From the IMG/VR virus record IMGVR_UViG_3300009788_000088: 64,000 bases of DNA; one strand, 5' to 3'. Shown here in pieces: positions 19,918 through 63,678 of this stretch (positions are counted from its first letter, which is position 1; each line of letters starts with the position of its first letter). The notes below the pieces were generated by a model that had not been told where the DNA came from, did no database searches, and saw only the letters and a program-made list of their open reading frames with translations. A program made the translations under genes and the position numbers. The DNA comes from a virus.

Positions 19918-21232
19918 TAAAATCACCGCACGGGCCACATTTCGGGCTCAGAGGAACCTTATTAATGAGATGGTTGATTATAAAGCCGATCTTGATGATA
20001 CCATCGCTAACGGTGGCCGTCTGATTATCGCTCAGGCTCCTGATAATCCACCCCTGACCAGAGCGCTTCAACCCCAGAAAGGAACGGGGACGGATACAGG
20101 AACGTATTTGATTGTCAAGGTTTATATTGGAGACCTTGGGGATCAAATAGTCAAAGTACCAGCCGCAGATTGGATTTCAACTACACGGATTAATGAAATT
20201 GAAGTATATAATGACGCCGACCAAATAATAGTTCCCGAAACGGGTCAGATTCTTTATCTCCAACTTGATAATGATCCAGAAGCTAAAGTACCCGGAGTCA
20301 AATATATTACCCCTGAAGGTCCATCCGCAAATATTTTAACTCTATCAGGATATCCAGAGTTGATTCGTTCTACTGCTGATGGTCTTTACCATGTTTATAA
20401 GTTTGTGTGGAATTCTACCAAGTGGGTGCTTCAACCAATTGGTGGTATGGCCGCACCTAACAATTACATACACCGAGTCAAAAGTTTTGAATTTGTGTTA
20501 TCGGCTGGGGGTGGAGTCAGGACTATTAGTTGGATTGATACTGGATATGATAAAACATATGTAACAGTATCAACCACAGATGGAATGGCATATACTATTT
20601 TAGATATAACAGGCACAACAACTGATGGTCAACGAATAGCTCTCCATATACAATCACCGAATATTACTTTACAACATACCTCCGATGGATTTTGGCAATC
20701 TGGAGGGGCTGACATATTAACCAAAACCGGAGATGTGTTAGAATATATTTTTGATGATTCTGTCAGTATATGGAAATGTATCGGGATGTCACGGTCTGTT
20801 TCCGGTGGTAACCCCAAAGCATTGTATACTGGTTTTGCCGGACCAATTTCCATGTCTTCTAATAATGCGTGGGTATATCCGGATTCGGTTGGTGGGTCGG
20901 TCGTGTATATAGACCCTCCCATAATCAAAGCGTCTACATTTGGATTCATTCTTCCTGTGGGATACTATGCCAAGATGTGGATTAACGGAACAATTTCGAT
21001 GGTACAAGCCGACCATGTAATTCGTTTAAGTAATAATGGTGGTTCACCATTCTTTGAAGCAAACGTGTCTCAAAGTAAATATGTATACTCTTCGGCTCCT
21101 TTTAGTATTGAATCCCCCCCTTTCTTAGTGACATCGGATAATGAAATCAGGTGGGGATTTAAAGAATTTGATGAAACAGGAAATGTTTTTGTTACTCATC
21201 TTGCTTGTGAGGTTTTAGGTTATGACGGATAA
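19910..21232 (+). CDS. baseplate-attached fibre/receptor-binding-like protein, paralog 1
   Basis: N-terminal ATFRAQRNLINEMVDYKADLD anchor shared with the next two genes; beta-rich body. Confidence 0.65.
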   Translation: MADKITARATFRAQRNLINEMVDYKADLDDTIANGGRLIIAQAPDNPPLTRALQPQKGTGTDTGTYLIVKVYIGDLGDQIVKVPAADWISTTRINEIEVYNDADQIIVPETGQILYLQLDNDPEAKVPGVKYITPEGPSANILTLSGYPELIRSTADGLYHVYKFVWNSTKWVLQPIGGMAAPNNYIHRVKSFEFVLSAGGGVRTISWIDTGYDKTYVTVSTTDGMAYTILDITGTTTDGQRIALHIQSPNITLQHTSDGFWQSGGADILTKTGDVLEYIFDDSVSIWKCIGMSRSVSGGNPKALYTGFAGPISMSSNNAWVYPDSVGGSVVYIDPPIIKASTFGFILPVGYYAKMWINGTISMVQADHVIRLSNNGGSPFFEANVSQSKYVYSSAPFSIESPPFLVTSDNEIRWGFKEFDETGNVFVTHLACEVLGYDG

Positions 21233-23105: not shown

Positions 23106-24388
23106 TGCCAGAACCTATTTACGTACAGGCAACAGATACAATAGAAATCCAACGAACAAAAATCAATGACCTTGTGGATTGGAAGGCGGACCTTGATCCG
23201 GCCACAAGTAAGCTCGTTCCAGCCCAATTTCCAAAAATGATTGTGTCCGGGGTGGTTACTGTCGGGGTAGATGATTTATCAGTTAACATGGACATTAGTT
23301 CTATCAGTGATGGAACAGCAAGTTTTCTTCGGGTCCAACAGACAAGTGGATTTAATCAGTTTCTTGTAAAAACTACTTTTATTAATGATACAGCGCCGAT
23401 AGGAACACAATTTGATATGATGTTTATATCCAGTGGTAGGATCAGATTTAATTTTGCGACTGGGAACATTTATCGACCAGCATCACCAAACACCAGTATA
23501 TCAGCGGCCTCTGGACAAATATTAACTTTCAGAAAGACAGCCGCAGATTATTGGGAGCTTATTAGCAATTCAGAACCTACTAATATGCCAATGGCTATCG
23601 GTGGTCCGGGAAGTCTGGGAGGAACCCCGGCAAATTACATGGACTTGACACCCGGACAAAAATATTACAAATACGGAACTTTCACAACTCTTGCGGGATT
23701 TTATCAAAGTCCTCATTTCTTCTTTCAGAAGGGCATGACTGTTATCTTGGAAATTATTGGAGCCGGGGGAGATGTAATTACTCATAATAGTTCTAGCCTT
23801 ATTCTTCCATATGGAAATGATATTACCGTGGCAACTGGAGATATTTTTGAGTTTATGTTTGTGGACTCATCAAGCAATGTATGGCAATTGGTAGGGAGTA
23901 ATAAGAAATTCGTTGCGCCTTTATCAATTGGAGCCGGGGGAGATAACAGCGCCCTATCGGTAGCAAATGACACAGAAATTGAAATTCCTACGGGTGGTGG
24001 TGGCGGCGGGTCTGTTTTCTTTCAAGAAGGAATCGTAGTATTTAATTCTCCATCGGATAATTACATTTATGTTCCGAATGTTAAAAAATTCCGGGCTTAT
24101 GCTGGGGTGTTGTGGAATATCCCGGCTACTACCAATCCATCAACATGGAGATGGCTCCATCTTGATTATTATGACGGAACTCCTAGCCTTGAAAAACGAT
24201 TCTCCGTGGCTCAGAGAAGTGGGGATAATGATAGTGGCCAACAAGAGTGTGGACAACACATTGTAACCCCACCTTTAGACGGGACCATTAATGGAGGCGC
24301 TTACATCAAGGGCGTTATGAAACAGAATTCTGGGGTTGCTTTAAACTCCTTATCTTGTTTCCTTGCTATTGAAGTCATTGAATTCTAA
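23105..24388 (+). CDS. baseplate-attached fibre/receptor-binding-like protein, paralog 3
   Basis: N-terminal DTIEIQRTKINDLVDWKADLD; internal LPYGNDITVATGDIFEF module. Confidence 0.65.
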   Translation: MPEPIYVQATDTIEIQRTKINDLVDWKADLDPATSKLVPAQFPKMIVSGVVTVGVDDLSVNMDISSISDGTASFLRVQQTSGFNQFLVKTTFINDTAPIGTQFDMMFISSGRIRFNFATGNIYRPASPNTSISAASGQILTFRKTAADYWELISNSEPTNMPMAIGGPGSLGGTPANYMDLTPGQKYYKYGTFTTLAGFYQSPHFFFQKGMTVILEIIGAGGDVITHNSSSLILPYGNDITVATGDIFEFMFVDSSSNVWQLVGSNKKFVAPLSIGAGGDNSALSVANDTEIEIPTGGGGGGSVFFQEGIVVFNSPSDNYIYVPNVKKFRAYAGVLWNIPATTNPSTWRWLHLDYYDGTPSLEKRFSVAQRSGDNDSGQQECGQHIVTPPLDGTINGGAYIKGVMKQNSGVALNSLSCFLAIEVIEF

Positions 24389-24477: not shown

Positions 24478-25017
24478 ATGCCCCCAGAACAGGATGTCTT
24501 AATAGCTATACAAACGGAACTTTCGGGTGTTAACGCAACAGTGGGAGCATATGGTGAGCGTCTAGGAAAAATAGAGGACGCAATTATTACGTTGGCCGCA
24601 ACACAGGAGCGTGTTAATAATATTGCTGATGATTTGAAGTCCCGTGAATTGGCATTGCAAAATTTTCAGAACGCTATCTGGGAAGAGATACGTAGATTAA
24701 ACAAATACAATTCTGAGATGTTGGAAAAGGTTACGATCTTATCAGTTAGATCAGAAGACAATGCCAAGAAAGTAGATACGCTTGAAAAATTTAAAAATGA
24801 TGTCAATCCCCAGATAAAGGAGAATACTCGTTTTCGGGGATGGGGCGAGAAATTGGTGTTTATTGTAGTAACGGCCATCGTTGTGGGTGTCGTTGGAACT
24901 GTTATATCATTTAATAATTCGCAGACTTTAAGTCATAGGGACATTGCTAAATTGTTGGATGGTAGAACCCCAGTAGTGGAATTAGAACAAAACAACGTAG
25001 AAAAGGATACGAAATGA
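24478..25017 (+). CDS. coiled-coil protein with one TM helix near the C-terminus (holin-like or XhlA-like architecture)
   Basis: Heptad-rich N-terminal 120 aa, then WGEKLVFIVVTAIVVGVVGTVISF. Confidence 0.55.
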   Translation: MPPEQDVLIAIQTELSGVNATVGAYGERLGKIEDAIITLAATQERVNNIADDLKSRELALQNFQNAIWEEIRRLNKYNSEMLEKVTILSVRSEDNAKKVDTLEKFKNDVNPQIKENTRFRGWGEKLVFIVVTAIVVGVVGTVISFNNSQTLSHRDIAKLLDGRTPVVELEQNNVEKDTK

Positions 25018-49500: not shown

Positions 49501-51174
49501 ATGGAAACTCTGGGCTTAAACACACCCACTCCTGAAATAATCCCGGCGTTCATTTATGATCGTATGACGGATTATGCCCCGGAGCTTCCCCCAGTCATTA
49601 AGGATGTTAAGGGGAAGAAGATAAAGTACCGTGGCCGGACCCAGATACGTCCGGAAAATTGTACCATCTCCTACACCGATGCCATGATAGAAGAGGTAAA
49701 AAGGTGTAAGCGAGATATTGAATATTTTGCTGAGAATTATTTCTACATCATCTCCAAGGATGAAGGCAAGAAGCTCATTGAATTGTATCCGAAGCAGTAT
49801 GAGATGCTTCGCCACATGCATGAGAATCGCTTCACGGCCACCCTTGCTTCACGTCAGATTGGCAAGACTACTCTGGTTAGTATCATCTTACTTCATCAAG
49901 CAATGTTCAATGATGACTTCACCATTGGTGTTCTGTCAAACAAAGAGAAGGGTGCCAAGGATGTTATCAGAAGAATTAAAGTAGCTTATAAGGAACTGCC
50001 TCATTGGTTAAAACAGGGTGTTACTGAATGGAACACTCTGAGTATCGTTTTTGAGAATGGCTCACGCATCGAAGCTGAGGCCACATCCGAAGATTCATTC
50101 ACCGGGCGTTCGCTAAACATCCTCTTTGTGGATGAGGTTGCTAAGATTGCCAAGAACCTTTGGGATGAATTCTGGAATTCAGCCTACCCGACAATTTCAT
50201 CTGGTACTACCACAAAGGTTTTAATGGTTTCTACCCCGAAAGGTCTGAATCATTGGTATAAGATTTGTCATGACTCCTTGAAAGAACTGTCACCATTTAA
50301 GTTCTTCCGTTATGATTGGTGGGAAGTTCCCGGCCGTGACTTGAAATGGAAACAGGATCAAATTGCAACCATATATGAACGTGGGTTTGCTCAGGAATAT
50401 GGATGTGAGTTCCTTGGCTCTGGTAATACTTTACTTTCCGGAGACGCTCTTAAAAGTCTTGTATGGCATACGCCTATCAGTGTGAAGGATGATTACCATT
50501 TCAAGGTATATGAGAATCCCAGCCCTAACCGGGTTTACGTTATCGGAGTGGATACTGGAAAAGGGGTAGAACTTTGTTACAGTGTGGCACAGGTGTTGGA
50601 TATCACAGAATTTCCTATCAGACAAGTAGCTGTATTCCGGGCGGCTGATATTTTGTATTCAGATTTCCCCGGATACATTATGCATATTGCTGATGAATAC
50701 TTCAACCCCATTATTATGGTAGAGAATAACGACCTTGGACAATCCGTGGCTGATGCCCTGTTCTTCGATTATGAGTATGACAACCTGTATAGTGAGTTTA
50801 AGAAACCAAACATGGGGCTTAGGACTACCACAAAGACAAAACGAATCATGCTCCACTTCATGAGGGACTTAATCGAGACCCAAAAGATGATTGTTAACGA
50901 TTATGACACTATTGCAGAATTTGGTACTTTTATTAAAAAAGCCAATTCTTATGTACCAGAAGAGGGGTCCACGGCTGATGCAATTATGGCCTTAGCTGTA
51001 GGCGCTTATGTTTTAAAAACGGATTGGGTTGATGTTGATAGATTAACTCAAAAAATAGCTCGTGTTGTTTACGTTAATCCTGAGATGGAAGAAACACCAT
51101 TCCCCATTTTACCATCCGGGTCATATGAAGATACAGAGACAGATGATGATTTTAAAAGATGGCTCATCAGTTAA
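49501..51174 (+). CDS. gp17: terminase large subunit (gp17)
   Basis: SRQIGKTT (Walker A), LFVDE (Walker B), YPTISSG.TTKV..VSTPKGLNHWY, nuclease GVDTGKG...VENN. Confidence 0.97.
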   Translation: METLGLNTPTPEIIPAFIYDRMTDYAPELPPVIKDVKGKKIKYRGRTQIRPENCTISYTDAMIEEVKRCKRDIEYFAENYFYIISKDEGKKLIELYPKQYEMLRHMHENRFTATLASRQIGKTTLVSIILLHQAMFNDDFTIGVLSNKEKGAKDVIRRIKVAYKELPHWLKQGVTEWNTLSIVFENGSRIEAEATSEDSFTGRSLNILFVDEVAKIAKNLWDEFWNSAYPTISSGTTTKVLMVSTPKGLNHWYKICHDSLKELSPFKFFRYDWWEVPGRDLKWKQDQIATIYERGFAQEYGCEFLGSGNTLLSGDALKSLVWHTPISVKDDYHFKVYENPSPNRVYVIGVDTGKGVELCYSVAQVLDITEFPIRQVAVFRAADILYSDFPGYIMHIADEYFNPIIMVENNDLGQSVADALFFDYEYDNLYSEFKKPNMGLRTTTKTKRIMLHFMRDLIETQKMIVNDYDTIAEFGTFIKKANSYVPEEGSTADAIMALAVGAYVLKTDWVDVDRLTQKIARVVYVNPEMEETPFPILPSGSYEDTETDDDFKRWLIS

Positions 51175-51186
51175 AGCGTTATCTCT

Positions 51187-51201
51187 TATAAATACTTGAA
51201 A
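51187..51201 (+). promoter_or_regulatory. late promoter for the lysis/secreted-fibre operon
   Basis: TATAAATACTTGAAA. Confidence 0.85.
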
Positions 51202-51232
51202 GACTTACCATTAACCCACAAGGAGGATTGTT

Positions 51233-51745
51233 ATGAAAAAGTTGAGTATCGTACTAATGGTATTCGCAATGCTGGCACTGTTCGTGGTTCCGGCTATGGC
51301 GGGTGCCGCACTGGTTGAGGATTTGACCGGAGTGTTCAATGAAGCCGTCTTCGGAGTTATCAAACTTCTATCCATGGCCGTACTGGGACTGGTTACTCTG
51401 GGTGTCCAGAAACTACTGAAGAAGTGGAAGCTGGAAGAGTACGAAGTTGCTGTTGTTGGTGCCGCTGAAGATGCAATTTTCTACGCCGAAGAATGGGCAC
51501 GAAAGAAAGCGTCTGAAAGAGGTTACGCTGTTGCTGGAGCCGAAAAGTTTGATAAGGCTTACATGAAAATGGCCGGAAAACTTCCGTTCCTTGATAGTGA
51601 AGGCGTAAAGACTGCTCTTGTGGTCAATCTGGCCAGAGCAAGAGATTACGGCTTAGAGAAGGGCCGGGAATCACTACAAAAGAAACTGGATGAACTTCAG
51701 ACTGGTAACGGCGGCGGGGATGATAACCCGAAGTCTGCTGAGTAA
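51233..51745 (+). CDS. holin-like membrane protein (LL-H-family-like) with extra N-terminal signal-peptide-like segment
   Basis: MKKLSIVLMVFAMLALFVVPAMA, then a TM helix, then AAEDAIFYAEEW...GAEKFDKA; first gene before the spanins. Confidence 0.6.
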   Translation: MKKLSIVLMVFAMLALFVVPAMAGAALVEDLTGVFNEAVFGVIKLLSMAVLGLVTLGVQKLLKKWKLEEYEVAVVGAAEDAIFYAEEWARKKASERGYAVAGAEKFDKAYMKMAGKLPFLDSEGVKTALVVNLARARDYGLEKGRESLQKKLDELQTGNGGGDDNPKSAE

Positions 51746-51750
51746 TTCAG

Positions 51751-51999
51751 ATGTTTGAATTACTCGGAACATTGTTGGGCATTGTGGGTCTTCTCCTGAA
51801 AGCTTTCCTTGGAAAGAAGAAGAGGGATAGGGAAGACCCCAGTGTCCAACATGAGAAAAAAGCATTGGAGGCCATCAATGAAAAGAAAAAATTCGAAAAA
51901 GCGGTGGCCCGTGGCGATGTGGAATACATCAATTCAGTCATTAAAAGGAATCGTGTTACTGTCCCTCCTTCTGAGCATTCTGGTAGTAACAGGGTGTAG
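51751..51999 (+). CDS. inner-membrane spanin (Rz-like)
   Basis: N-terminal TM helix then charged helical periplasmic segment; overlapped by a lipoprotein gene in another frame. Confidence 0.6.
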   Translation: MFELLGTLLGIVGLLLKAFLGKKKRDREDPSVQHEKKALEAINEKKKFEKAVARGDVEYINSVIKRNRVTVPPSEHSGSNRV

Positions 52000-52219
52000 T
52001 TTTCTTCAGAAGGATGTCATTCTCCTTAATACCGGGGATGAACAGATAGTAGGTCAAGTAGGCGATTTCTCTGAAAAAGAACTGAAGGTGATGTCGAAAT
52101 TCTACATCGTATCACCCCCTTATATCTTCAACCATGAAGAGACGGTGAAGTATTGGCGGGTGAAGGCCGAAAATCTTCAGATTAAAAACGAAGAACTCAT
52201 AAAACAACTTAAACATTAA
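51917..52219 (+). CDS. outer-membrane lipoprotein spanin (Rz1-like)
   Basis: Lipoprotein signal KGIVLLSLLLSILVVTG-C; overlaps the i-spanin 3' end; start uncertain (51917 or further upstream). Confidence 0.65.
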   Translation: MWNTSIQSLKGIVLLSLLLSILVVTGCSFLQKDVILLNTGDEQIVGQVGDFSEKELKVMSKFYIVSPPYIFNHEETVKYWRVKAENLQIKNEELIKQLKH

Positions 52220-52228
52220 GAGGGTATC

Positions 52229-55200
52229 ATGCTAAAGAAAATAGCTGGTATAATTCTAGCTACAACATTCGTGTTCGTGGGAACGGTGGTTTCTGAGCCG
52301 TTCCCTACATGGCAAGAATATCCCGATAACTGGATTGCCCCCCTTCAATATCCTACCAAGAAAATAGCTATTGGTGGGTATGATGAAACATCCCCAATAC
52401 GTTTTTATCCAAACGGGTCTGCTTATTTTAACACAATTTGGGCAACAGATTACCACGGAACCGATGTGTGGATTAATTACCTTTACTCTAAAAATACAGC
52501 GTCCATTTTCGCAACCGGTGGACAATTTGGATACGCCGATTCAGGAGATGCTTGGATCGCCTTCGGCTCGATTGATACTAACACTACTTATTCAGCGTCA
52601 AATGGTATTGCACTCATTGATACTAATTTCACGTTTGATGGATTATTGAATGAGATAGGTAATCCTGATAATGATACAACTTTTGTAATGGGGAACAATA
52701 CACTCACATTTACCTTCAGTGGACCTGTTGGTGCAGATGGTGCATTTGAAATTGATGCTAGTGGTGGGTTCTCAGGCGATCTTGTACACATACATCAACA
52801 TACTGGTAATCCTTCTTCAGTTGATCTTCTTCATTTAGAAGCTGATGATGCTGATGTAATACCACTTAAAATTATAAGCGAAGGTACTCAACCTGCGATA
52901 ATTACCTTTGGTGGTGTTTATATAAGTAACGGAATTACTAATGGAGCTTATATTCAATTTGATCCTTCTTCCTTAGCATCTCTATATGATGAAGGTAAAC
53001 TCTTCTATGATAGTACGAGTGGGGCATTGGCATTTTATAATGATGAAGCGGATATAACCCTACAGATTGGGCAGGAAGTATATTACAAAGCCCGTAACGC
53101 TTCTGGAGCGACAATAGATGACGGTATGATCGTCTATATAGATGGGGCTACTGGTGAAGTACCTAATATTAGATTAGCAGAAGCGGATGATGTTGCGACT
53201 ACTTATGTATTAGGAATGACTACTCATCAAATTGAAGATGGTACTGATGGATATGTGACAACGATAGGCGTTGTTCATGATATAGATACCTCTTTGTATG
53301 CGGCGGGTGATCGACTATATTTAGATGACGTCACCGCTGGTAATTTTACTGACGTGAGACCGTCGATAGGAAGTAGAGTAATTGAAGTAGGTTACGTAGT
53401 TGCTGTTGGGACTACAAACGGTTCTATTGTCCTTCATAGTTCAAATGAAGATTATGTAATTAATGATACATATGGAGCAACTTGGGATGGGGTTACCGGC
53501 CAGTCAAGTTCCGCTAATGCTGTTCATGATATTCTTTCTCAATATGACTCTGATTATGACGGGGTAGTTGATTCTGTACTTAACAGTGCTGTGAGTCATA
53601 CAGGGATTTCAGGAGTGAGTAGCACACAACACCATGTACCCGTCACAGCTTTAGACTTTACAGCTATAACCGGGTCTGCGACTGACTCACAGATACCGGA
53701 TGATATTACAGTAACAGCGGCAACTATCTCAGGTACGATAACCTCCCTTCAAATAGCGGATGATATGGCGAGAGACTCAGAGCTTCACGCTAAAACTACC
53801 TCACTTCCCTTTACTTCAATTACTGGGACTCTTGAAGGTCTTTCAATTGGAGCTAATGGGGTAACTATTAATTGGGTGTTGGCGGCCGATGGCGCAAATG
53901 GGACTGCATGGAAGGAAGATGCGACCGGTGGAGGTGGAGGTGTATATTACGCAGGAATAGCTATGGACCTTGCTACTTCAACTTTCAACTGGGTAGCCGA
54001 TACAACCATCTCTATGGGCAGTAGTGAAGCTTTTATTTTAAGTTGGGCAAATAAATCTATAACATTCGATAGTAACGGAATGGCTGTTAGTGGGACGGGT
54101 GAATCCTCAGCATACGCCATGACCATCACTGATACTTTAAAAATCCATGGTGCTGTTACAATGTCGGATATCTGTTCAACTAATAACAATTTGCTCACTT
54201 GGGGCACTGACGGGGTTCTTGAGTGTGTTACTGCATCAGGTGGTGGTGACATGTTCAAGTCAGTTTATGATGCTGATAACAGTTCGGCTATAGACTATAC
54301 GGCTGGTGGGGTGCCTATTAATTGTGTTGATGGTGAGGCCATCCAGAACAGCGGAGGGTCTTCGTGGATATGTACAGTTATCGCCGCTGGCAGTGGCACA
54401 GGAGGAATGTGGACTGATATAAACTCTGCGCTTCAACCACTTGATGCAGGATATGGAATAGGGTCAGCCGTTACACCCATTGGACCATCTTTCTTTGATA
54501 CTCTTACTGTAGTAAATGGGCTTACTGTTGATAATGTTATTTCAACCGCAGATACTAAGTATATTCAAGCTGATAATTCGTCGGCTCCGACAACTACATT
54601 CCTTGGGGTTGGATATATATGGACACTCAACGGCGAACCTTATGTTGCCGTAGATGGGACTATAAAAAATGCTATAGCCTACTCAGGAATGCCCTCTGTT
54701 ACATTTAGTGATACAACTATGACAGGTGCAGTCGTGATGCCAGCGATTTGTAGTACAAACTCATGGGCTGTCGTACAGGGTGCCAGTGGTTTAGGTTGCG
54801 TGGAACTTACTGGTGGTGCTGAAGTTAACAACCTTGAAGCTGTCATTACTGGTATTGAGTTAGGTGAGATATTCTACGGGACAGGTACTAACGCAGGGGC
54901 TTATACAGCCCACAATTTCAGTAAGATCGCTGATAGTATTATTGATGCTCAAGTGCCTGACGATATCACTATTCTTTCTTCGGCTATTTCGGGCAACATA
55001 ACCTCCGCTCAAATAGCCGCTGATATGGCGAGAGACAGTGAGTTATTTGGTGGCGACTTTACAGACCTTTCTGGAACAGCTACCGATGGCCAAGTTCCTA
55101 ACCTTGAAGCACTTAGTAACGGTGCGGGAGCGGGTTCCTCTGCGTGGGTACTTGCGACTGATGGAGTGGGAAATAGTTACTGGAAACTTGATGCTACCGG

Positions 55201-58200
55201 AGGTGGTGGAGCTAACTCGTTTGAGACGTGGGATGTAGAGAATGGTACTGACCCTGTTGCTTCATCTGCCACTGATACGATACGACTACTTGATGGAACC
55301 GGAATTACGATTACAGGTAATGCTACGGCTGATAGCATTACAATTGCTTTTACGGGTAACTTTGCGGATATAGCTGACTCGGTGCAAGATGCTCAAATAG
55401 TTGATTCCATTGCGAGGGATATTGAGCTACATACACAGGGAACCGATACTGCTCTTGGAGCGATGGTTGAAGATATTGACATGAATACCTTGTATCAACT
55501 TATCGCTTTGGCCGCTCCTGTTGGCGCTGGTGAGGCTGTTAGAACAACTACCAACATCACAGAAGTTAACTTGATTGAGCTTACTGATGCCAGCGAGACG
55601 ACTTTACATAGCCATGCTGGGGGTGGCACGACTTACAACGCAGGAATAGCAATGGCTCTCGTAGGAACTACTTTCAATTGGGTGGCTGATACAACTATTT
55701 CTATGGGTAGTAGTGAAGCATTCGTTTTAAGTTGGTCTAATAAGTCGATCACATTTGATAGCAATGGGTTTGCGGTGAGTGGAACGGGCGAAAGCTCTGC
55801 TTACGCTATGACTATTACTGACACCTTAAAAGTCCACGGTGAAGTAACTATGTCGGCTATCTGCTCAACGGATGATAATCTTGTGAGATGGAATACTGGT
55901 GGTGATCTTGACTGTATCGCCGCTGGCAGTGGGGCGGGTGGATTGTGGACTGACATTAACTCTGCACTTCAGCCTCTTGATTCTGGGTATGGAGTTGGGT
56001 CAGCCACTACGCCTATTGGGTCTTCTTTCTTTGATACTCTTACTGTTATTAATAACTTAAGCGTTGGGACAATAACTTCTACAGCTTCAACTAAGTATAT
56101 TCAAGTTGATAATGCCACGGCTCCCACAGGCACATTCCTTGGAATAGGATACATTATTACAATAGCGGGTGAGCCGAAGGTAGCTGTTGATGGTACTAAT
56201 TTAAGTGCGTTTTATCACTCTACTAATCTATTATTTGGGAGTGGTTTAAGTAAGTCTGGTAATACTCTTACCGCTTCGGGTGGTTCAGGACTTTGGACCG
56301 ATAACACCACTTACATCATGCCCAACGATAATACTGACGATCTTGGCGCTACTGCTGAACGTATCCCTAATATTTACGCTGATACTTTAGATGCTCCAAC
56401 GATAATTACAGACTATCTCTACTCCAAATCAACCGCTTCAATCTTCGCTACAGGTGGACAATTCGGTTATACAGATTCAGGCGATGCTTGGGTATCCTTT
56501 GACTCTCTTGTTGGCGGAGGTGGATTTAGTATTGCTGGCACCAACTTAACAAGTTCGGGAGCTACGGTAAGCGTTATAAGCAATCCTAGATTTACGAGTA
56601 TTTCGAATCCAGTAGACATACATGATTCCCTTTCTTGGAGTGGTACGGATACTTTTATAATTTATGAAGAAGACGATGTTTTGACTCAAAGATGGCAAGA
56701 ACTACAACTGACTAGTGACGGTGTAAACTCGAAAATACGTTTATATTCACAAGATGGTTACGCCGGAGAGAGCGCAACGATGGAGATAGACGGAACCGAC
56801 GGTATTATACTTCTCAACCCATCGGTTGCTGTTCAGTCTAATGCCGATATTGATTTAACTAACTCATCTCAAGTAGTCAATCTTCAAGCTCCCGCCGCAC
56901 TCGGTGAGGCTATTCGACAGACCGCTAACGTGACGGAAACGAATCTGAATACTCTCACTGGAGGTGGAGATACTACGCTACATGATCATGATGGTATCTT
57001 GGAGAATATTACTCATAGAGGAAGTGATGGCACAGACCATTCCTATATTGATCAGGATGTTACGACTTCTGGCACACCCGCATTTTTATCAATATCGGCT
57101 AATTCTGTAGCTATTACAACTGCAACTATTGATAGTCTTAATCTTGGTTCTGTGTGTTCTACTGACCAATACCATCTTGTTTGGAATACTGATAATTCAG
57201 TAAGTTGTGTGTCGGCGGCTGGTGGTGGAGACATGAATACTGCTACCTATGACGTGGGAGCTAATGGGTTTATAGACCAAGCCGCTGGCGGAACTGAGTT
57301 GGATACTTCGGGGGTCACGAACGGTCAGATGCTTATTGGTAATACTACGAGTAATGTGTGGAATTTGGGCACCATTTCAGGGACAGCGAATGAGATAGGT
57401 ATCGCTGTAGGTGGTGGATCGTTACAGGTAAGTATTGTTGCGAGTCCTATATTAGATGCTACGAATATAACGGGTGGGGATATTCATACTCAAGGAACTG
57501 ATACAGCCCTTGGTGCAATGGCTGAAGATATCGATATGAACACCCTGTATCAACTTATTTCCCTTGCGGCACCTGTTGGAGTAGGCGAGGCTGTAAGAAC
57601 GACTACGAATATTACAGAGGTTAACTTGATTGAGCTTACTAATGCCAGTGAGACAACTTTACATAGCCATGCTGGTGGAGGAAGTTTATGGACCGATCAA
57701 ACGGGTTATATTCTGGTTGTGGATGATGATAATATTGGAGCAAGCGGTGATAAAGTCGCTGATATTTTCGCCACCAACATTACATCAGGTGCGTTCTTAA
57801 CGGATGCCGCTGATGGCGATAGATTTATCGATTGCACGAATACTAATAATGTTTTTACCACCACAGGTTATCTTTGTTTTGATATCACCGATGATGAACT
57901 TCAATATTATGATAGTGATAGTATGGAGAGTGTACCAAAGACTTCTGATCTTCATACCCAAGGTACTGATACTACTTTAGGTACAATGACCGCTGATATC
58001 GATATGAACAATTTATTCCAAATAGTTAATCTACAGACGCCAGCGGCATTAGGGGAGGCCCTTCGACAGACCGCCAATGTTACCGAAACGAATCTCAACA
58101 CCTTAACCGGTGGCGGTGATACGACCCTGCATGACCATGATGGGGTTAGTGAAAACACGACACACAGAGGTAGTGATGGGAGCGACCATTCACTTAGTCA

Positions 58201-58672
58201 TGCTCAATCTCACGATAATACTGACCACTCAACTAATTACGCAGTCCAAGGTGGAGCGGAACACGATAACTTCTCTGACTTTGTGGGAGCAGAACATCTT
58301 ACTCCGGGTGATGGGCTTGTTCAGAACGGGACTGTTGTTGATGTTGTTAAGCAGACATTCTCCAGAGGAATTATAGATTCAGTAACTACAGCGGATGTTC
58401 AAATTCCTATGGGATGGGCAAATGGCTCTTGCACTATTGATAAAATTGTTTGTCGTGGAACTACATATTCATCTACAATTACAGTCTATAATGATACTGC
58501 GGCTATTTACACAGGACTTGTTTGTGCTGTGAATACCCCCGGTAGTGAGACATCACAGACATCAGGATTAGCAAATACATCTATTGCAGATGGAGCGGAG
58601 CTTAACTTTACTGTGACTGCAACTGGTGGATCAGACCCAACACTACTAATTGTTCAAGCGGAGTGTAACTAA
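52229..58672 (+). CDS. giant (2147 aa) repetitive fibre/adhesin-like protein with N-terminal Sec signal peptide
   Basis: MLKKIAGIILATTFVFVGTVVS-EP; Gly/Thr/Asp-rich; long internal duplications; Cys pairs; fibre-like motifs (WVLATDG.G...W, GGGDM...YD, HTH-type His motifs). Confidence 0.8.
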   Translation: MLKKIAGIILATTFVFVGTVVSEPFPTWQEYPDNWIAPLQYPTKKIAIGGYDETSPIRFYPNGSAYFNTIWATDYHGTDVWINYLYSKNTASIFATGGQFGYADSGDAWIAFGSIDTNTTYSASNGIALIDTNFTFDGLLNEIGNPDNDTTFVMGNNTLTFTFSGPVGADGAFEIDASGGFSGDLVHIHQHTGNPSSVDLLHLEADDADVIPLKIISEGTQPAIITFGGVYISNGITNGAYIQFDPSSLASLYDEGKLFYDSTSGALAFYNDEADITLQIGQEVYYKARNASGATIDDGMIVYIDGATGEVPNIRLAEADDVATTYVLGMTTHQIEDGTDGYVTTIGVVHDIDTSLYAAGDRLYLDDVTAGNFTDVRPSIGSRVIEVGYVVAVGTTNGSIVLHSSNEDYVINDTYGATWDGVTGQSSSANAVHDILSQYDSDYDGVVDSVLNSAVSHTGISGVSSTQHHVPVTALDFTAITGSATDSQIPDDITVTAATISGTITSLQIADDMARDSELHAKTTSLPFTSITGTLEGLSIGANGVTINWVLAADGANGTAWKEDATGGGGGVYYAGIAMDLATSTFNWVADTTISMGSSEAFILSWANKSITFDSNGMAVSGTGESSAYAMTITDTLKIHGAVTMSDICSTNNNLLTWGTDGVLECVTASGGGDMFKSVYDADNSSAIDYTAGGVPINCVDGEAIQNSGGSSWICTVIAAGSGTGGMWTDINSALQPLDAGYGIGSAVTPIGPSFFDTLTVVNGLTVDNVISTADTKYIQADNSSAPTTTFLGVGYIWTLNGEPYVAVDGTIKNAIAYSGMPSVTFSDTTMTGAVVMPAICSTNSWAVVQGASGLGCVELTGGAEVNNLEAVITGIELGEIFYGTGTNAGAYTAHNFSKIADSIIDAQVPDDITILSSAISGNITSAQIAADMARDSELFGGDFTDLSGTATDGQVPNLEALSNGAGAGSSAWVLATDGVGNSYWKLDATGGGGANSFETWDVENGTDPVASSATDTIRLLDGTGITITGNATADSITIAFTGNFADIADSVQDAQIVDSIARDIELHTQGTDTALGAMVEDIDMNTLYQLIALAAPVGAGEAVRTTTNITEVNLIELTDASETTLHSHAGGGTTYNAGIAMALVGTTFNWVADTTISMGSSEAFVLSWSNKSITFDSNGFAVSGTGESSAYAMTITDTLKVHGEVTMSAICSTDDNLVRWNTGGDLDCIAAGSGAGGLWTDINSALQPLDSGYGVGSATTPIGSSFFDTLTVINNLSVGTITSTASTKYIQVDNATAPTGTFLGIGYIITIAGEPKVAVDGTNLSAFYHSTNLLFGSGLSKSGNTLTASGGSGLWTDNTTYIMPNDNTDDLGATAERIPNIYADTLDAPTIITDYLYSKSTASIFATGGQFGYTDSGDAWVSFDSLVGGGGFSIAGTNLTSSGATVSVISNPRFTSISNPVDIHDSLSWSGTDTFIIYEEDDVLTQRWQELQLTSDGVNSKIRLYSQDGYAGESATMEIDGTDGIILLNPSVAVQSNADIDLTNSSQVVNLQAPAALGEAIRQTANVTETNLNTLTGGGDTTLHDHDGILENITHRGSDGTDHSYIDQDVTTSGTPAFLSISANSVAITTATIDSLNLGSVCSTDQYHLVWNTDNSVSCVSAAGGGDMNTATYDVGANGFIDQAAGGTELDTSGVTNGQMLIGNTTSNVWNLGTISGTANEIGIAVGGGSLQVSIVASPILDATNITGGDIHTQGTDTALGAMAEDIDMNTLYQLISLAAPVGVGEAVRTTTNITEVNLIELTNASETTLHSHAGGGSLWTDQTGYILVVDDDNIGASGDKVADIFATNITSGAFLTDAADGDRFIDCTNTNNVFTTTGYLCFDITDDELQYYDSDSMESVPKTSDLHTQGTDTTLGTMTADIDMNNLFQIVNLQTPAALGEALRQTANVTETNLNTLTGGGDTTLHDHDGVSENTTHRGSDGSDHSLSHAQSHDNTDHSTNYAVQGGAEHDNFSDFVGAEHLTPGDGLVQNGTVVDVVKQTFSRGIIDSVTTADVQIPMGWANGSCTIDKIVCRGTTYSSTITVYNDTAAIYTGLVCAVNTPGSETSQTSGLANTSIADGAELNFTVTATGGSDPTLLIVQAECN

Positions 58673-59250
58673 TGAAAGTAATTATCGGGACAGTCATAGC
58701 TGGTCTCCTCTTCTTCGGGTGGTTTAATATTGTATTCGCCGTTGAATTTGAAACTATTCGACCGTCAGGCACATACGACACGAACGCAAAGTGGGCTAAT
58801 AACTCAAATGCTTGGGATAACAGTTTAACTACAGCGGCGGACCTTACCGGTGGGCCGCCTAATCAAAGCGATAGCTGGTTATATGTTGGAGCCGTTACAA
58901 GTGTTGCGACTGATGCTTGGGATGCTCCTTCACAGTCATGGGATTCGGGGACTCTCTACTGTACCTATTCTTCTGACGGATGGGATGGCAACGATCTCTT
59001 CTCGGTTGAGATAAGAAATGGGGCCGATTCGATATTAGCAACATTAGAATCTCCAACGGCATCAGCGGTAACAAAAACTACTAAGAATTATGTTCTATCT
59101 GGTGGAGAGTTAAGTAATCAAACAGATTTGAGGTGTGTAGGAATTTATAATCGTGCTGGTGGTCAGGATACTGGCGCTTCCTATATTTATGAAGTGTGGC
59201 AAGACGGTACGTTTACTATAGTCGATGGTGTGCGCAGGAGGTTAATATAA
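58672..59250 (+). CDS. signal-peptide-bearing beta-sandwich-like protein
   Basis: MKVIIGTVIAGLLFFGWFNIVFA-VE; TAATG coupling; 2 Cys. Confidence 0.7.
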   Translation: MKVIIGTVIAGLLFFGWFNIVFAVEFETIRPSGTYDTNAKWANNSNAWDNSLTTAADLTGGPPNQSDSWLYVGAVTSVATDAWDAPSQSWDSGTLYCTYSSDGWDGNDLFSVEIRNGADSILATLESPTASAVTKTTKNYVLSGGELSNQTDLRCVGIYNRAGGQDTGASYIYEVWQDGTFTIVDGVRRRLI

Positions 59251-59840
59251 TGAAAAAGTTAATATTCATTCTACTTTTAATTCCTTCTATCATATGGGGA
59301 GCTTCGTTTAATGGGTCAGCTAATTTTGCTACTGGCAGGGTTGAAGTCTTTTTATGTACGACTCTTGCTGACTCGGAAACAGCTACGGGGAATGGAGCTA
59401 AGGAAGGATTTAAGTTTGGGACTCAGGATTGGTGGGGAAGTCCATTCACAGCTACATCAAATTATACCCTTTGTTCAGTTGAAGTGGATATGGCAAGAAC
59501 AGCCACACCAGCTTCCTATAACATGACCGCTCACATCTTCCTAGACGATGGTGGAGATGATATCACGGGCTCCTCATTAGGTAATTCTGATTCAATTCCT
59601 GCTTCTGCCACATCAACAACGTGGGGGTTTATCACCTTTCCGAACATGAGTGTATCTATAACCTCCGGGACTCGATACTGGATTATGATTACATCTGACG
59701 GGGTTGATGGTACAAACACAGTTAGCATTAGAACCACTGACTTAGGGGTAGCTGGAAGAATCCATTATGATGACAATGGAGTGCCCCCAACAACTGTTTC
59801 TGACGCTACTAAAGGGACAAGGTATAAAACTTATGAATAA
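59250..59840 (+). CDS. signal-peptide-bearing beta-sandwich-like protein (start 59250)
   Basis: AGGAGG RBS, TAATG coupling; MKKLIFILLLIPSIIWG-AS; FTATSNYTLCSV...ITSGTRYWI pattern. Confidence 0.7.
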   Translation: MKKLIFILLLIPSIIWGASFNGSANFATGRVEVFLCTTLADSETATGNGAKEGFKFGTQDWWGSPFTATSNYTLCSVEVDMARTATPASYNMTAHIFLDDGGDDITGSSLGNSDSIPASATSTTWGFITFPNMSVSITSGTRYWIMITSDGVDGTNTVSIRTTDLGVAGRIHYDDNGVPPTTVSDATKGTRYKTYE

Positions 59841-61161
59841 GTTAATTACTATAATGTTATTTTTGTTTATACCTTCTCTTGCTCTGGCAACAGAGTATAC
59901 GGCGGATTCGTGCTCTTACGCAGATGTACAAAGTAAGTATGCCAACTCTACTGCCCACGGTGACACACTCAACATCCCAGCCGGTACGTGTGGTTGGGGA
60001 AGTATGTTAACAGTTACTAAAGGTGTTCATTTTGCGGGGGCGGGAACTACTTCGACTATAATCACGAGGAATGGAACCGCCATAAAAGCTGATGTTGATT
60101 CGCCTAATAACTTTAGCGTGAGCGGAATTAGATTCGTGGGGAATGGGAATAAGTTATGCATAACAGGTAGTCAGACAGAGTTTTTAGTTGATAATAATGC
60201 CTTCCATGATGATGGAGATGTAGGGCTTCAGATTATTGTAGGATCAAACACATGTGCGAATAATTGTGGTCAACAAACGCTGGGAGTTATTTCAGCAAAC
60301 AGCTTCTTATCCACTGTCGGTGGTACTAGTGGAGACGATAAGAGTTTTATTTATATCACCTCAGATGGAACGGCCAATGGTTATTCTCGATCATCAGGTA
60401 TTGGTGGAGCCGATAACATGGTCTTTGTGGAAGATAATACCTTCTATGCTTGGGCTGATTGGGGCAAAGATCACGCTGTCTGGACACAGTGTGGTGGGTC
60501 TTATGTGTTTCGATATAATACGGTTGATAACACAAACGTAGATATGCACGGAAACTGTTCATGGTGGGGTGGGAGAGAGTTTGAGATTTATAATAATGAT
60601 TTCGATTGTAGCCAAGCTCAAAATGAAGCTGGTTCAGATGGGACCGATAATGCGATAAACGTTCGTGGTGGAACAGGTGTGATATGGGGAAACACTTGGG
60701 TATCTACGGGTGGGGCTACTTGTCAGATGAGATTTACGATCTATGACATGAGACTTACGGCCGGGTGTAATGCCACTCTGTATCCGGGCAACCAGTGTAC
60801 AACTGCGGACATAAACAGCGACGATAATTACCCTTGGGAGTATGGCCTTGGTAGAGGAGAGGATAACGGTCTTGATCCTATTTATAGTTGGGGAAATAGT
60901 TGGATGAGTAATTCACTTACCTATGCTAACCTTGATTGGGTTGATGGTTCACAGTGTGATTCAATACTTGATCCAGACATGACTTTAATTGGGACAGGGG
61001 CAAGAACATTAGTAGAAGAGGATAGAGATTGGTACTTTCAAACTGCAAGACCAACGTACACACCTTATACATACCCTCATCCATTACGAGGGGAACAAGA
61101 ACCCGAAGGTGTAACTAACGTTCTTCGTGGTGGCTCACTGAGAGGCGGAAGTATTCGGTAG
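59833..61161 (+). CDS. signal-peptide-bearing right-handed beta-helix (pectate-lyase-like) protein
   Basis: MNKLITIMLFLFIPSLALA-TE; GDTLNIPAGT...GAG...TII, VDNNAF, FVEDNTF, VFRYNT, EIYNNDF, RGGTGVIWGNT, YTPYTYPHPL. Confidence 0.75.
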   Translation: MNKLITIMLFLFIPSLALATEYTADSCSYADVQSKYANSTAHGDTLNIPAGTCGWGSMLTVTKGVHFAGAGTTSTIITRNGTAIKADVDSPNNFSVSGIRFVGNGNKLCITGSQTEFLVDNNAFHDDGDVGLQIIVGSNTCANNCGQQTLGVISANSFLSTVGGTSGDDKSFIYITSDGTANGYSRSSGIGGADNMVFVEDNTFYAWADWGKDHAVWTQCGGSYVFRYNTVDNTNVDMHGNCSWWGGREFEIYNNDFDCSQAQNEAGSDGTDNAINVRGGTGVIWGNTWVSTGGATCQMRFTIYDMRLTAGCNATLYPGNQCTTADINSDDNYPWEYGLGRGEDNGLDPIYSWGNSWMSNSLTYANLDWVDGSQCDSILDPDMTLIGTGARTLVEEDRDWYFQTARPTYTPYTYPHPLRGEQEPEGVTNVLRGGSLRGGSIR

Positions 61162-61171
61162 AAAGAACAAA

Positions 61172-61186
61172 TATAAATACTTAAAA
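61172..61186 (+). promoter_or_regulatory. late promoter
   Basis: TATAAATACTTAAAA. Confidence 0.85.
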
Positions 61187-61270
61187 CGTAGCTTTGTCGG
61201 AGTTTAAGAATTATACACCACACAGGATGATAATTATCTCTGTGTGGTGTAATCCTACTTAGGGGATACA

Positions 61271-62191
61271 ATGCGTATAGTATCATTTCCTTCAGCGGCC
61301 GGATTCACTGTTGAGATTGCGTTCGTGAGAGATTCCAATCCATTAGAAATGTGGGATGGGGTTTCTGCGTGGACATTGGTTTCAACATATCATGCAATGA
61401 GCTTTGGAACAATTGATAACAACTATTACATTACGGATTCTGACATAGTTCCCCCAGATGAAAGATGTTGGACCATTGCCCGTGGACAAATAGGTGCTGG
61501 TCCGTTTACTAACATAGATTCTAGGTTGTTCGATCCATATACCGCTGATGCTCCTATGAGTATTGATGCTCTGTACAACTTACTTATCGCCGGGGCGTTG
61601 AACCCGGTAACTTTCCACGTAACTGATGACCAAGGAGTTCCACAAGTTGTTCCGGGCCTGACCCTTGAGATTTGGGATTTGGGTGGGGTGCTTCGATACA
61701 AGAAGGGTATTACGGATTCAAACGGGGACTGGGTAACTGGAGGACTTCCGGAAGGCGATTATACCATTCGTGGATTCTCCCCAACACATAGCTTTACAGA
61801 ACAGCCTATTACCATTCCAGTTGGGGGAGGCACAATACCTTTATCGGCTGTGAGGACTGTTTTTGCTCCGGGGTCATCTCCGGGTCTTACCACTCTCTGG
61901 GGATATACGGCTGATATTCTGGGGGTAGCAATTGAGAACACTCTTATAGAGATTCTAACTTATGCACCCGTGGCAGTCTTCTCAGGGGGATCGGCCATTG
62001 ATGGGGATAAACATCTCATCTATACGGACGCTTCAGGATACTTCTCTGTAGGCGTGGTACAAGAGATTCCCATTCGTATTAAATGTCAAGCTGTAAAATA
62101 TAACAGGTCTATCACATTCGCTGATACTGTGGCGGATATGGATTGGCAGGACATTCCTATTAATAACGACACTCACGCCAGCTACAATTAG
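61271..62191 (+). CDS. virion-type protein with carboxypeptidase-regulatory-like (transthyretin/Ig-like) domains
   Basis: V.D..G...PG....GITDSNG.W....LPEGDYTI and TDASGYFSV repeats. Confidence 0.65.
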   Translation: MRIVSFPSAAGFTVEIAFVRDSNPLEMWDGVSAWTLVSTYHAMSFGTIDNNYYITDSDIVPPDERCWTIARGQIGAGPFTNIDSRLFDPYTADAPMSIDALYNLLIAGALNPVTFHVTDDQGVPQVVPGLTLEIWDLGGVLRYKKGITDSNGDWVTGGLPEGDYTIRGFSPTHSFTEQPITIPVGGGTIPLSAVRTVFAPGSSPGLTTLWGYTADILGVAIENTLIEILTYAPVAVFSGGSAIDGDKHLIYTDASGYFSVGVVQEIPIRIKCQAVKYNRSITFADTVADMDWQDIPINNDTHASYN

Positions 62192-62200
62192 GAGTAAGAG

Positions 62201-62560
62201 ATGAAAGGGTTTATACAACATTCAATTGAAGAATCTATGAAGAGAATGATGTTATACGGGGCTATGGTCTCTATGGAATATGATAAGAGTTACAAGAAGA
62301 ATGAATCCTCTATTCTCCGTGACCTCAAGATTCTTCAACGGGCCAACAAGGTCTATTCAGGAGATGAACCGCTTAAACTCCAGTACATCGAATTCCAGAT
62401 TCTGGGAACGAATGGTGTTATTAAGCCCAAACCTGATTGGGAGAAGTTGGTCGTGGTCAAGGATCAGATTAGTATCTACGAAATCCTCCGGGGTAACAAC
62501 CAATACACGAAGGCCGCTCTTCGGCCAGTCAAGGCAATCGTGTTTGCTGTAAAGGAGTAG
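62201..62560 (+). CDS. hypothetical protein with capsid-targeting-like N-terminus
   Basis: MKGFIQHSIEES. Confidence 0.6.
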   Translation: MKGFIQHSIEESMKRMMLYGAMVSMEYDKSYKKNESSILRDLKILQRANKVYSGDEPLKLQYIEFQILGTNGVIKPKPDWEKLVVVKDQISIYEILRGNNQYTKAALRPVKAIVFAVKE

Positions 62561-62562
62561 TC

Positions 62563-62799
62563 ATGCAATTTAAGGATATGATCACGGAAAAAAAGGGTAA
62601 CAACCCACGAGAAGAATTTAAAAAATATGTTAGTACAACCCAGACGTTGATGGGTGATTTGGGAAAACTTGAAAAAGCTTTTTCTGATACTATGCAAGAT
62701 GAACTATTGATAAAATATCGGAAAGAGTTTGAAACATTGTTAACGGCGATGAATAATTTTAATATAAACACCCAGAAACTTTTAAAAGCTATTAAGTAG
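62563..62799 (+). CDS. hypothetical protein with capsid-targeting-like N-terminus
   Basis: MQFKDMITEK; AAGGAG RBS. Confidence 0.6.
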   Translation: MQFKDMITEKKGNNPREEFKKYVSTTQTLMGDLGKLEKAFSDTMQDELLIKYRKEFETLLTAMNNFNINTQKLLKAIK

Positions 62800-62807
62800 G
62801 AGTAGTC

Positions 62808-63359
62808 ATGCACATTTATCTATCTGAAGGACATGATGCTAAACGCCGTGGCGCTGTGAACGCCAAGTACGGTCTTTCCGAATATGACTTAGCCGTCCCT
62901 ATCGCCGCTATGGTGTTTTCAGAACTGGCCCATCTCCCGGCCGTCACGCTCATGGAGCAGGACACACTGGGTAATGTTATCCGTTCTATGAAGGCAAAAG
63001 ATGTGGACAAGACAATCAGCATCGAATTCCACTTTAATAGCAACGTAGGAACCCCGTGGAGAGGCTGTGAGACACTTTATCTCCATAACCTAGCACTTCC
63101 CCTTGCAGAGAGCGTACAGAGCGCTACGCAGGGTTATATGGACAATCGGGACCGTGGGGTGAAGCGTCGGGATAACCTTGGATTCCTGAAGACGGGTTCC
63201 GTGTCTCTCATCCTTGAACCATTCTTCATAAACAACGATGACGAACTAGAGAAGTTCGTCATTAAAGAAGATAAATCTGGAGTGGATAACTGGAAGCTGA
63301 AGGCGCTGGCCAAAGCTATGGCTTTTGGGATTGCCGCTGGGTATCACAGGATAACATAA
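62808..63359 (+). CDS. N-acetylmuramoyl-L-alanine amidase (Amidase_3) endolysin
   Basis: IYLSEGH...GAV...E...ISIEFHFNS...GCETLY...DRGVK..DNLGFL...LILEPFFINN..E. Confidence 0.88.
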   Translation: MHIYLSEGHDAKRRGAVNAKYGLSEYDLAVPIAAMVFSELAHLPAVTLMEQDTLGNVIRSMKAKDVDKTISIEFHFNSNVGTPWRGCETLYLHNLALPLAESVQSATQGYMDNRDRGVKRRDNLGFLKTGSVSLILEPFFINNDDELEKFVIKEDKSGVDNWKLKALAKAMAFGIAAGYHRIT

Positions 63360-63468
63360 AACACAATAATAGCAATTATCCAAATAATCACCAAACCAAT
63401 AATACAAGGAAGATGTTTTCTCTCTTCCTGTCTGGCCCGAAGAATACCTTTATGTAATTCCAACATAT

Positions 63469-63678
63469 TCATAATGCATTCTCGTCCCAGTTCTTAAGCA
63501 TATCCTCCATCTGTTTACTTATACGATCCATCCTTTTAACATTACATTCAAAACACCAATACGGGGACCATGCTGTTCCTGCTAGATTTTTACACTCGGA
63601 TTCAATACCAATACATGGTAATCCCGATTTGTGTCTTGGGTGATTACCTTCGTGTTTGGGGTCTTGATAAGGAAACAT
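63469..63678 (-). CDS. hypothetical Cys-rich protein (likely start MFPYQDP)
   Basis: GGAGG upstream; C...C...WCFEC motif. Confidence 0.55.
   Translation of the reverse strand: MFPYQDPKHEGNHPRHKSGLPCIGIESECKNLAGTAWSPYWCFECNVKRMDRISKQMEDMLKNWDENAL

Follow-up and report, generated by a model that had tools for sequence, protein, structure and literature searches.

Why would a tailed phage place secretion signals on a giant fibre-like protein, when the textbook assembly of tailed phages is wholly cytoplasmic? We pursued this question in a stretch of 64,000 nucleotides (nt) from the IMG/VR virus record IMGVR_UViG_3300009788_000088, referred to below as the window, which lies on a 156,812-bp contig and whose source is a distant, uncultured T4-like myovirus. 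Behind its large terminase gene is a cassette of seven genes, the last four of which encode a fibre-like protein of 2147 amino acids (aa) and proteins of 192, 196 and 442 aa, each beginning with a predicted signal peptide. The original prediction had taken these four for a fibre and three tip or adhesin proteins that mature in the periplasm. We favour a reading to which we give about an even chance, namely that this is a lineage-specific, fast-changing accessory cassette whose products are routed by the Sec pathway to the envelope late in infection.

Predicted export signals in a late operon

Signals were called by rule (basic n-region, hydrophobic core, small residues at -3/-1), complemented by a hydrophobicity scan. 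Six of the seven operon proteins have a Sec or lipoprotein signal-type N-terminus with a basic n-region and a hydrophobic core of 14-21 residues; the seventh, of 82 aa, has a plain transmembrane helix. The Sec/signal peptidase I (SPase I) rule was satisfied by five proteins, with predicted cuts at VVS↓E in the 2147-aa protein (a signal peptide of 22 aa), VFA↓V in the 192-aa, IWG↓A in the 196-aa, ALA↓T in the 442-aa and AMA↓G in the 170-aa protein, while the 113-aa protein fits the SPase II lipobox [LVI][ASTVI][GAS]C with VTG↓C and Ser at +2. Among 89 non-overlapping open reading frames (ORFs) of the window, the scan flagged this cluster only, bar one minus-strand ORF that is probably spurious. 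The four textbook Sec/SPase I signals claimed earlier were thereby borne out, as both their n-h-c layout and the -3/-1 rule hold and they are confined to the cluster within the window. Their conservation in homologues, put forward at the time as a check, was found as well: signals are retained in the fibre relative P0002, in the partner proteins of two related loci (L006 and L017) and in 84 of the 119 listed homologues of the 442-aa beta-helix protein, and the mature parts under them have diverged to ~30% identity or been wholly replaced. Export of the set thus appears highly probable, and because all four proteins begin with secretion signals, they are probably adapted to folding and acting outside the cytoplasm.

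It is highly improbable that these N-termini are assembly or oligomerisation helices, or products of mis-called starts, on what would then be ordinary cytoplasmic virion parts. Such an explanation can draw on the hydrophobic core of the fibre, the weakest of the set with a mean hydropathy of 2.4, and on a 1-nt difference in the 192-aa gene: one A at window position 58698 is missing in L007 and L008, where the protein starts 22 nt further upstream and its first 16 residues differ. The VFA cut site and a hydrophobic core of 14 residues are nevertheless present in that variant. Moreover, the fit of six operon proteins to the signal layout has no equal among the ~75 other ORFs of the window, the ribosome-binding sites fit the called starts, a lipobox protein is encoded in the same operon, and the bacterial members of the beta-helix family are secreted and share the mature N-terminus of the phage protein.

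Two observations concern the signals themselves. Six related signal-bearing fibres (P0002, P0006-P0009 and P0024, from L006, L009 and L010) have W-A-P in common after the hydrophobic core, at the signal end, often followed by a Pro/Gly-rich linker. We dropped the idea that its Pro sits at +1 and blocks cleavage, leaving an uncleaved anchor, since a cut before W satisfies the -3/-1 rule in 6/6 of these fibres; W-A-P could mark the start of the mature protein, conserved among them, or serve as a special motif for sorting or cleavage. Separately, a near-identical signal (52% identity, 27 aa) heads the 170-aa protein (window 51233-51301) and a 138-aa protein of L017 (3132-3210), whose mature parts are unrelated, as if signals were swapped as modules.

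The seven genes are one late operon, as had been proposed. Against an expectation of 3.5, the T4-type late promoter motif TATAAATA is present 17 times in the window, with 13/17 copies on the + strand, and those copies lie mostly in short gaps just 5' of structural genes. One precedes the cassette at 51187 and the next on the + strand comes only at 61172 (Table 1); between them the genes are tightly packed, with junctions that are 5-9 nt gaps, overlaps or TAATG. Terminator-like sites in 50900-63600 are as many as expected by chance and none is convincing, in accordance with the earlier statement that no terminator was seen in between. A perfect 8-bp hairpin (CCACACAG/CTGTGTGG) at 61219-61249, in the leader between promoter 61172 and the following 306-aa gene, has no T-run and is therefore not a terminator.

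Table 1. Positions of the cassette genes, their control elements and other features of the window
Feature	Position	Strand	Remark
Three signal-less paralogues (440, 627, 427 aa)	19910-24388	+	directly behind baseplate genes
T4-type large terminase	49501-51174		directly 5' of cassette promoter
T4-type late promoter TATAAATA	51187-51194	+	in 58-nt gap behind terminase gene
170-aa envelope protein	51233-51745	+	AAGGAGG ribosome-binding site; holin candidate by topology
82-aa N-terminal transmembrane protein	51751-51999	+	i-spanin candidate
113-aa lipoprotein	51878-52219	+	overlaps 82-aa gene in another frame; o-spanin candidate
2147-aa mosaic fibre with predicted signal peptide	52229-58672	+	
Tail-fibre-shared domain, fibre residues 253-409	52985-53455	+	sequence match
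HxH module and Cys hairpin, fibre residues 1040-1250	55346-55978	+	predicted intertwined homotrimer
C-terminal beta-sandwich tip domain, ~100 aa	58361-58669	+	model pLDDT 55-82
192-aa putatively exported beta-strand protein	58672-59250	+	TAATG junction
196-aa putatively exported beta-sandwich protein	59250-59840	+	TAATG junction
442-aa putatively exported beta-helix enzyme candidate	59833-61161	+	8-nt overlap with previous gene
Next late promoter TATAAATA	61172-61179	+	operon end
306-aa signal-less protein, CarboxypepD_reg-like domain	61271-62191	+	conserved right flank of cassette
Endolysin (Amidase_3)	62808-63359	+	outside operon, under another promoter, 10.6 kb downstream

The fibre, its partners and a beta-helix protein

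The 2147-aa protein is a mosaic fibre, fibre-like and probably trimeric. Sequence kinship with annotated tail fibres from cultured phages spans its residues 253-409 (Roseobacter phage CRP-6 gp61, 44% identity, E 1e-23; gp61 itself has no signal), and residues 130-240 form a module present in 307 proteins. When 152 proteins were examined (149 among the matches listed for residues 130-240, together with P0002-P0004), 36 had signal-like N-termini. At E <= 0.001 the relatives of the fibre were four proteins including the query, of which only P0002 aligned over much of the length (36% identity), retaining both the signal and the mature start EPFPTWQ; other modules, including the HxH modules, are common to the signal-less fibre-like proteins P0003 and P0004. 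The fibre has four HxH modules of ~75 aa each and internal duplications, with residues 568-820 resembling 1131-1331 at 70-88% identity. The IMG/VR scan with the fibre matched only the shared domain, beyond which cultured phages gave no homologue; Protein Data Bank (PDB) sequence searches with the fibre N-terminus and C-terminus gave no match. The domain match and the mosaic of HxH modules agree with the view of the original prediction that the giant protein is fibre-like.

Modelling of a trimeric shaft, which had been suggested as a further check, was run on residues 1040-1250. Three copies were predicted to form an intertwined homotrimer with an interface score (ipSAE) of 0.79 against 0.00 for the best control, a predicted local distance difference test score (pLDDT) of ~70 and >=85% contact agreement between runs. 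The mark used for the trimer score was reached by 21/30 proteins solved as pairs and by 0/23 solved as single chains, and the model supports, without proving, a trimer of this segment. At the C-terminus is a predicted tip domain that is common to the fibres of L006 and L017. Its fold matches are weak (template modelling (TM) score 0.3-0.4) and of jelly-roll type: the lambda gpJ receptor-binding domain and lectin or carbohydrate-binding module (CBM) folds.

In one near-identical metagenome contig the fibre gene is interrupted. In L007 (JGI 3300028610), which is 99.9% identical, 56 nt of the gene are absent (window 53635-53690; L007 885-891), and this frameshifting deletion leaves one signal-bearing piece of 472 aa and one signal-less piece of 1635 aa; either the gene is naturally knocked out there or its repetitive sequence was misassembled.

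The cysteine counts given earlier proved exact. The fibre has 16 Cys, comprising six close pairs whose members are 14-17 residues apart (649/666, 699/715, 841/857, 1212/1229, 1643/1660 and 1869/1883) and four in the last 80 residues; its partners have 2 (192-aa), 2 (196-aa) and 12 (442-aa), all within the mature parts. Few Cys occur in other structural proteins (1 in the major capsid protein, 3 in sheath, none in portal). The pairs thus stand as described, but their proposed tie to export was weakened: close pairs are modestly enriched in signal-bearing relatives (14/36 vs 19/116 signal-less), they are present in signal-less fibres too, and the four Cys of the tip are not conserved. The case for disulfide dependence is weaker than that for export. 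A Cys hairpin of 14-18 residues (C..G......G..xC) recurs in the window fibre (residues 649-1883) and in P0045, P0093, P0100, P0107, P0114, P0118 and P0122, and looks like a widespread fibre building block of proteins with and without signals.

The 192-aa protein is a conserved companion of the fibre with a C-terminal RRRxI-type tail. A 187-aa homologue occurs in L017 (30% identity, E 3e-14), and a 253-aa protein of L006 has only the C-terminal tail in common with it, with no BLAST match; all three are signal-bearing. The single-sequence fold of the 192-aa protein reached a pLDDT of 47, too low for a structure search. For the 196-aa protein, the Atlas model is a beta-sandwich (predicted TM score (pTM) 0.72), whose structure neighbours are domains of autotransporter, PEP-CTERM and type IX secretion system (T9SS) secreted bacterial surface proteins. 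By features its nearest clusters are viral; it has no Pfam or PHROG family and no deposited-phage match by tblastn.

The 442-aa protein had been counted among the tip or adhesin proteins, an assignment that is weakened, as over its full length it belongs to a family of secreted bacterial beta-helix proteins from polysaccharide loci and has no added docking domain. Its Atlas model is a right-handed beta-helix (pTM 0.79) that matches NosD, Beta_helix and chondroitinase-B clusters at TM 0.57-0.76. Homologues number 392; some carry PF13229, PF12708 or PF22842, and most have no Pfam assignment. Conserved in the family are a mature N-terminus that starts right at the predicted cut and 17 invariant residues, which include Glu, His, Arg, Asn and a C-terminal YTYPHP motif; the first Cys pair is kept in 21/25 and 17/25 sequences. 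Chromosomal homologues lie inside Wzx/Wzy-type polysaccharide loci in 3/3 cases examined, and a fourth homologue is on a phage contig, two genes from Amidase_2. We found no close relative of the phage copy in the IMG/VR scan, no tblastn match in deposited phages and no PDB sequence match. Because it lacks an extra docking domain, the protein looks like a free exported enzyme and not a fibre tip, and it may derive from a bacterial periplasmic enzyme of polysaccharide processing that the phage captured. Secreted Cys-rich beta-helix proteins of ~420 aa (L018 8001-9365, L019 8001-9368 and the contig carrying P0160), with an N-terminal SCSxxDVQ motif and a C-terminal PGYTPYTYPHPL motif, form a bacterial family that stands inside Wzx/Wzy clusters and is likely a new polysaccharide-processing enzyme family.

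The three genes upstream of the fibre plausibly encode lysis proteins, a holin and a spanin pair, on the basis of topology and gene overlap. The 170-aa protein combines a signal-like N-terminus with a second transmembrane helix, and its C-terminal half (~100 aa) is charged. The 82-aa protein consists of an N-terminal transmembrane helix and a charged helical tail and is short for an i-spanin; the 113-aa lipoprotein, whose gene has GGAGG 7 nt before its ATG at 51878, has a mature part with only 2 Pro, unlike typical o-spanins. Their genes overlap as in two-component spanins. None of the three matched a Pfam or PHROG family, and the 170-aa and 113-aa proteins had no deposited-phage match by tblastn. 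Of the holin-spanin cassette named in the original prediction, the topology and the overlap stand, whereas a family match is wanting and the endolysin lies far downstream under another promoter.

A variable cassette and its possible roles

Comparison with relatives revealed a block of variable content. In L017, from a closer phage, the 306-aa flank protein is 84% identical; upstream of it are a different fibre with the same tip type and then three signal-bearing partners, one of which is the 192-aa homologue, and the beta-helix gene is absent from that cassette. As the flanks are kept in L017 while fibre and partners are swapped, the block is a hypervariable cassette between conserved flanks. 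In L006, P0002 is followed by four more signal-bearing proteins, one of them beta-helix-like by eye with no BLAST match to the 442-aa protein. T4-like phages with a terminase 40-42% identical lack the block, and their terminase gene is directly followed by portal. Unrelated phage types (L009, L010) also have signal-bearing fibres accompanied by partners with signals, among them a contig with an SU10-type capsid gene, and in L009 the signal-bearing fibre lies within the structural module, adjoining the capsid gene. The 306-aa flank protein was also considered as kin of the proteins behind the signal-bearing fibres of L009 and L010, which BLAST did not support.

The window itself holds portal, sheath, tape measure, baseplate hub and wedge, major capsid protein and head-tail adaptor genes, and its best terminase matches among deposited phages are those of cyanophages and Sinorhizobium phage phiN3 (37-39% identity). 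Its three signal-less paralogues share an N-terminus of ~45 aa and have fully diverged bodies. They have no Pfam, PHROG or deposited-phage match, and a PDB sequence search with one of them was empty. From their position and layout, they are likely the virion's own receptor-binding proteins, alternatives that dock to one baseplate site. Directly behind them, a 179-aa coiled-coil protein (24478-25017) with a single C-terminal transmembrane helix has its own late promoter (24430) and could be a lysis or membrane-associated assembly protein. T4 gp34-37, which had been called unrecognisable in the window, indeed found no match among the window ORFs scanned (not every ORF was scanned), and the operon proteins have no Pfam or PHROG match. 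We argue that the cassette is an accessory set and not the primary fibres, because signal-less paralogues stand on the baseplate side, the cluster is lineage-specific and the fibre gene is frameshifted in L007.

The reading nearest to the original prediction is a periplasm-matured virion fibre, in which the fibre and its small partners would be exported, folded oxidatively and docked onto cytoplasm-built particles around lysis, in the brief span that starts when the holin has opened the inner membrane and ends with, or shortly past, rupture of the outer membrane by the spanins. We regard this as unlikely, with a real if minor chance of being correct, and would say the same of the role that goes with it, in which the fibre, held stable by disulfides and metal sites, would serve as an accessory or long tail fibre. 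The fibre has a domain in common with annotated tail fibres and HxH modules in common with signal-less P0003 and P0004, and host-range genes usually show just this signature, with hypervariable content between flanks that are conserved. The conserved mature N-terminus (EPFPTWQ in P0002; W-A-P in six fibres) would suit a docking end, the genes are co-transcribed with candidate lysis genes, and the L009 fibre sits beside a capsid gene. T4 long fibres likewise join the particle as a separate last step, binding the baseplate independently, and a free giant fibre has no obvious use. On the other hand, a full-text literature search turned up no publication on tailed-phage fibres exported by Sec, the 442-aa protein consists of the bacterial family core with no docking domain added, signal-less receptor-binding candidates are already at the baseplate, the cluster is dispensable in related T4-like phages, and assembly after lysis must compete with dilution. 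If virion attachment were true, Caudoviricetes virions would have a new, second route of assembly, located outside the cytoplasm.

In the favoured reading of an accessory, envelope-routed cassette, the 2147-aa protein would be exported unfolded, cut after VVS and folded in the periplasm into a long homotrimeric fibre that HxH modules and Cys hairpins stabilise. The 192-aa companion would be its partner or chaperone, the 442-aa beta-helix may act as a free enzyme on host O-antigen, capsule or exopolysaccharide, and the 196-aa beta-sandwich may be a sugar-binding helper. The products of the three small upstream genes, two membrane proteins and a lipoprotein, would rupture the envelope and so release or expose the set. 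Given these putative roles, the cassette would act on host surface polysaccharide from outside the cytoplasm. Possible gains are that receptors on the dying cell and its debris are stripped or masked and that matrix is loosened. The primary fibre set would be separate and assembled in the cytoplasm, and the exported fibre would reach particles, if at all, only after holin action merges the compartments.

Several points weigh against this reading. The export of the set is deduced from sequence rules and conservation. A virion role is just as compatible with the fibre modules in common with true virion fibres and with the swapping of the cassette between conserved flanks, a pattern typical for receptor-binding proteins. 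A free fibre of 2147 aa has no demonstrated use and would compete with virions if it bound the phage's own receptor, and no outer-membrane translocation route, signal or machinery was seen. The 442-aa family is uncharacterised, so that its polysaccharide activity and substrate are putative, and the phage copy has no Pfam family at E<0.01. The L007 deletion variant could be an assembly error.

Comparison with known systems

A companion, a lectin-like protein and a putative polysaccharide enzyme of host type are encoded with a giant relative of virion fibres, and all four would be sent along the secretion pathway. This could mean either an unrecognised extracytoplasmic step of virion maturation, or a set of late phage 'envelope tools' that bind and cut surface sugars from the periplasmic side; either would alter the annotation of fibre-like genes in metagenomic phages and host-range prediction from them. 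The uncharacterised beta-helix family of Wzx/Wzy loci is flagged as a likely polysaccharide-processing enzyme.

The mosaic adhesive trimer (MAT) fibres of Bdellovibrio bacteriovorus are bacterial and surface-displayed, and in 13/21 of them the C-terminus is an S74 chaperone-protease (Caulton et al. 2024, PMC10769870). They resemble the window fibre, as predicted here, in having a signal, directly behind it a conserved N-terminal region, a long trimeric mosaic shaft, a variable C-terminal beta-sandwich tip and extracytoplasmic folding (PMC10769870). The likeness is one of layout: MAT fibres are encoded by a bacterium, whereas here the gene is in a lytic-phage late operon beside an enzyme candidate and candidate lysis genes, and a Pfam scan found no Peptidase_S74 domain in the operon proteins.

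The MAT layout, a phage-like fibre with a signal peptide on a cell surface, speaks for a further alternative, display on the infected cell, with the fibre and lectin-like proteins at the surface or tethered to the envelope. We consider such display improbable, and equally so its suggested effects, which would be masking of receptors against superinfection, capture of competing phages or adhesion to nearby host cells. A cassette that is accessory and variable would suit it, as would the bacterial surface-protein domains among the structure neighbours of the 196-aa protein. However, a late promoter that acts shortly before lysis leaves little time for an exclusion role, no signal or machinery for crossing the outer membrane was seen, and the S74 domain is missing. 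The SM1 proteins PblA and PblB, which such display would also resemble, are tail-fibre-like. In Streptococcus mitis these phage-encoded proteins end on the bacterial surface as adhesins, which reach the wall via permeabilisation by holin and lysin (PMC2920869). That route is not Sec, they use no signal peptides, and their host is Gram-positive.

Two kinds of phage protein offer further likenesses. T4 long tail fibres, gp34-gp37 with the chaperones gp38 and gp57A, have no signal peptides and fold in the cytoplasm, and HxH motifs of gp37 bind iron on the three-fold axis. Common to both systems are a long modular homotrimeric fibre (here predicted), a small partner gene directly 3' and HxH motifs; the differences are the signals, the lack of gp34-37 homology in the operon proteins and a position behind terminase, whereas the T4 fibre genes lie elsewhere. 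Lambda Lom and Bor, T5 Llp, T4 RI and the signal-arrest-release (SAR) endolysins are Sec-routed envelope proteins of phages, some encoded in late or tail operons, which act in the envelope on receptors or lysis timing. Like the cassette genes, they use the host Sec pathway, but they are small single proteins, and to our knowledge none is a fibre of >2000 aa with virion-fibre homology or part of a four-gene exported block.

For the 442-aa protein, the likeness is with AlgG, a periplasmic beta-helix enzyme of a polysaccharide pathway, and with polysaccharide lyase family 6 (PL6) and chondroitinase-B: a beta-helix with a signal, a family in polysaccharide loci, and invariant acid and His residues. 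It differs in that its family is as yet uncharacterised and the phage copy is stand-alone, not fused to a tailspike anchor. The cassette as a whole combines known kinds, a phage fibre cassette and signal-bearing phage envelope genes.

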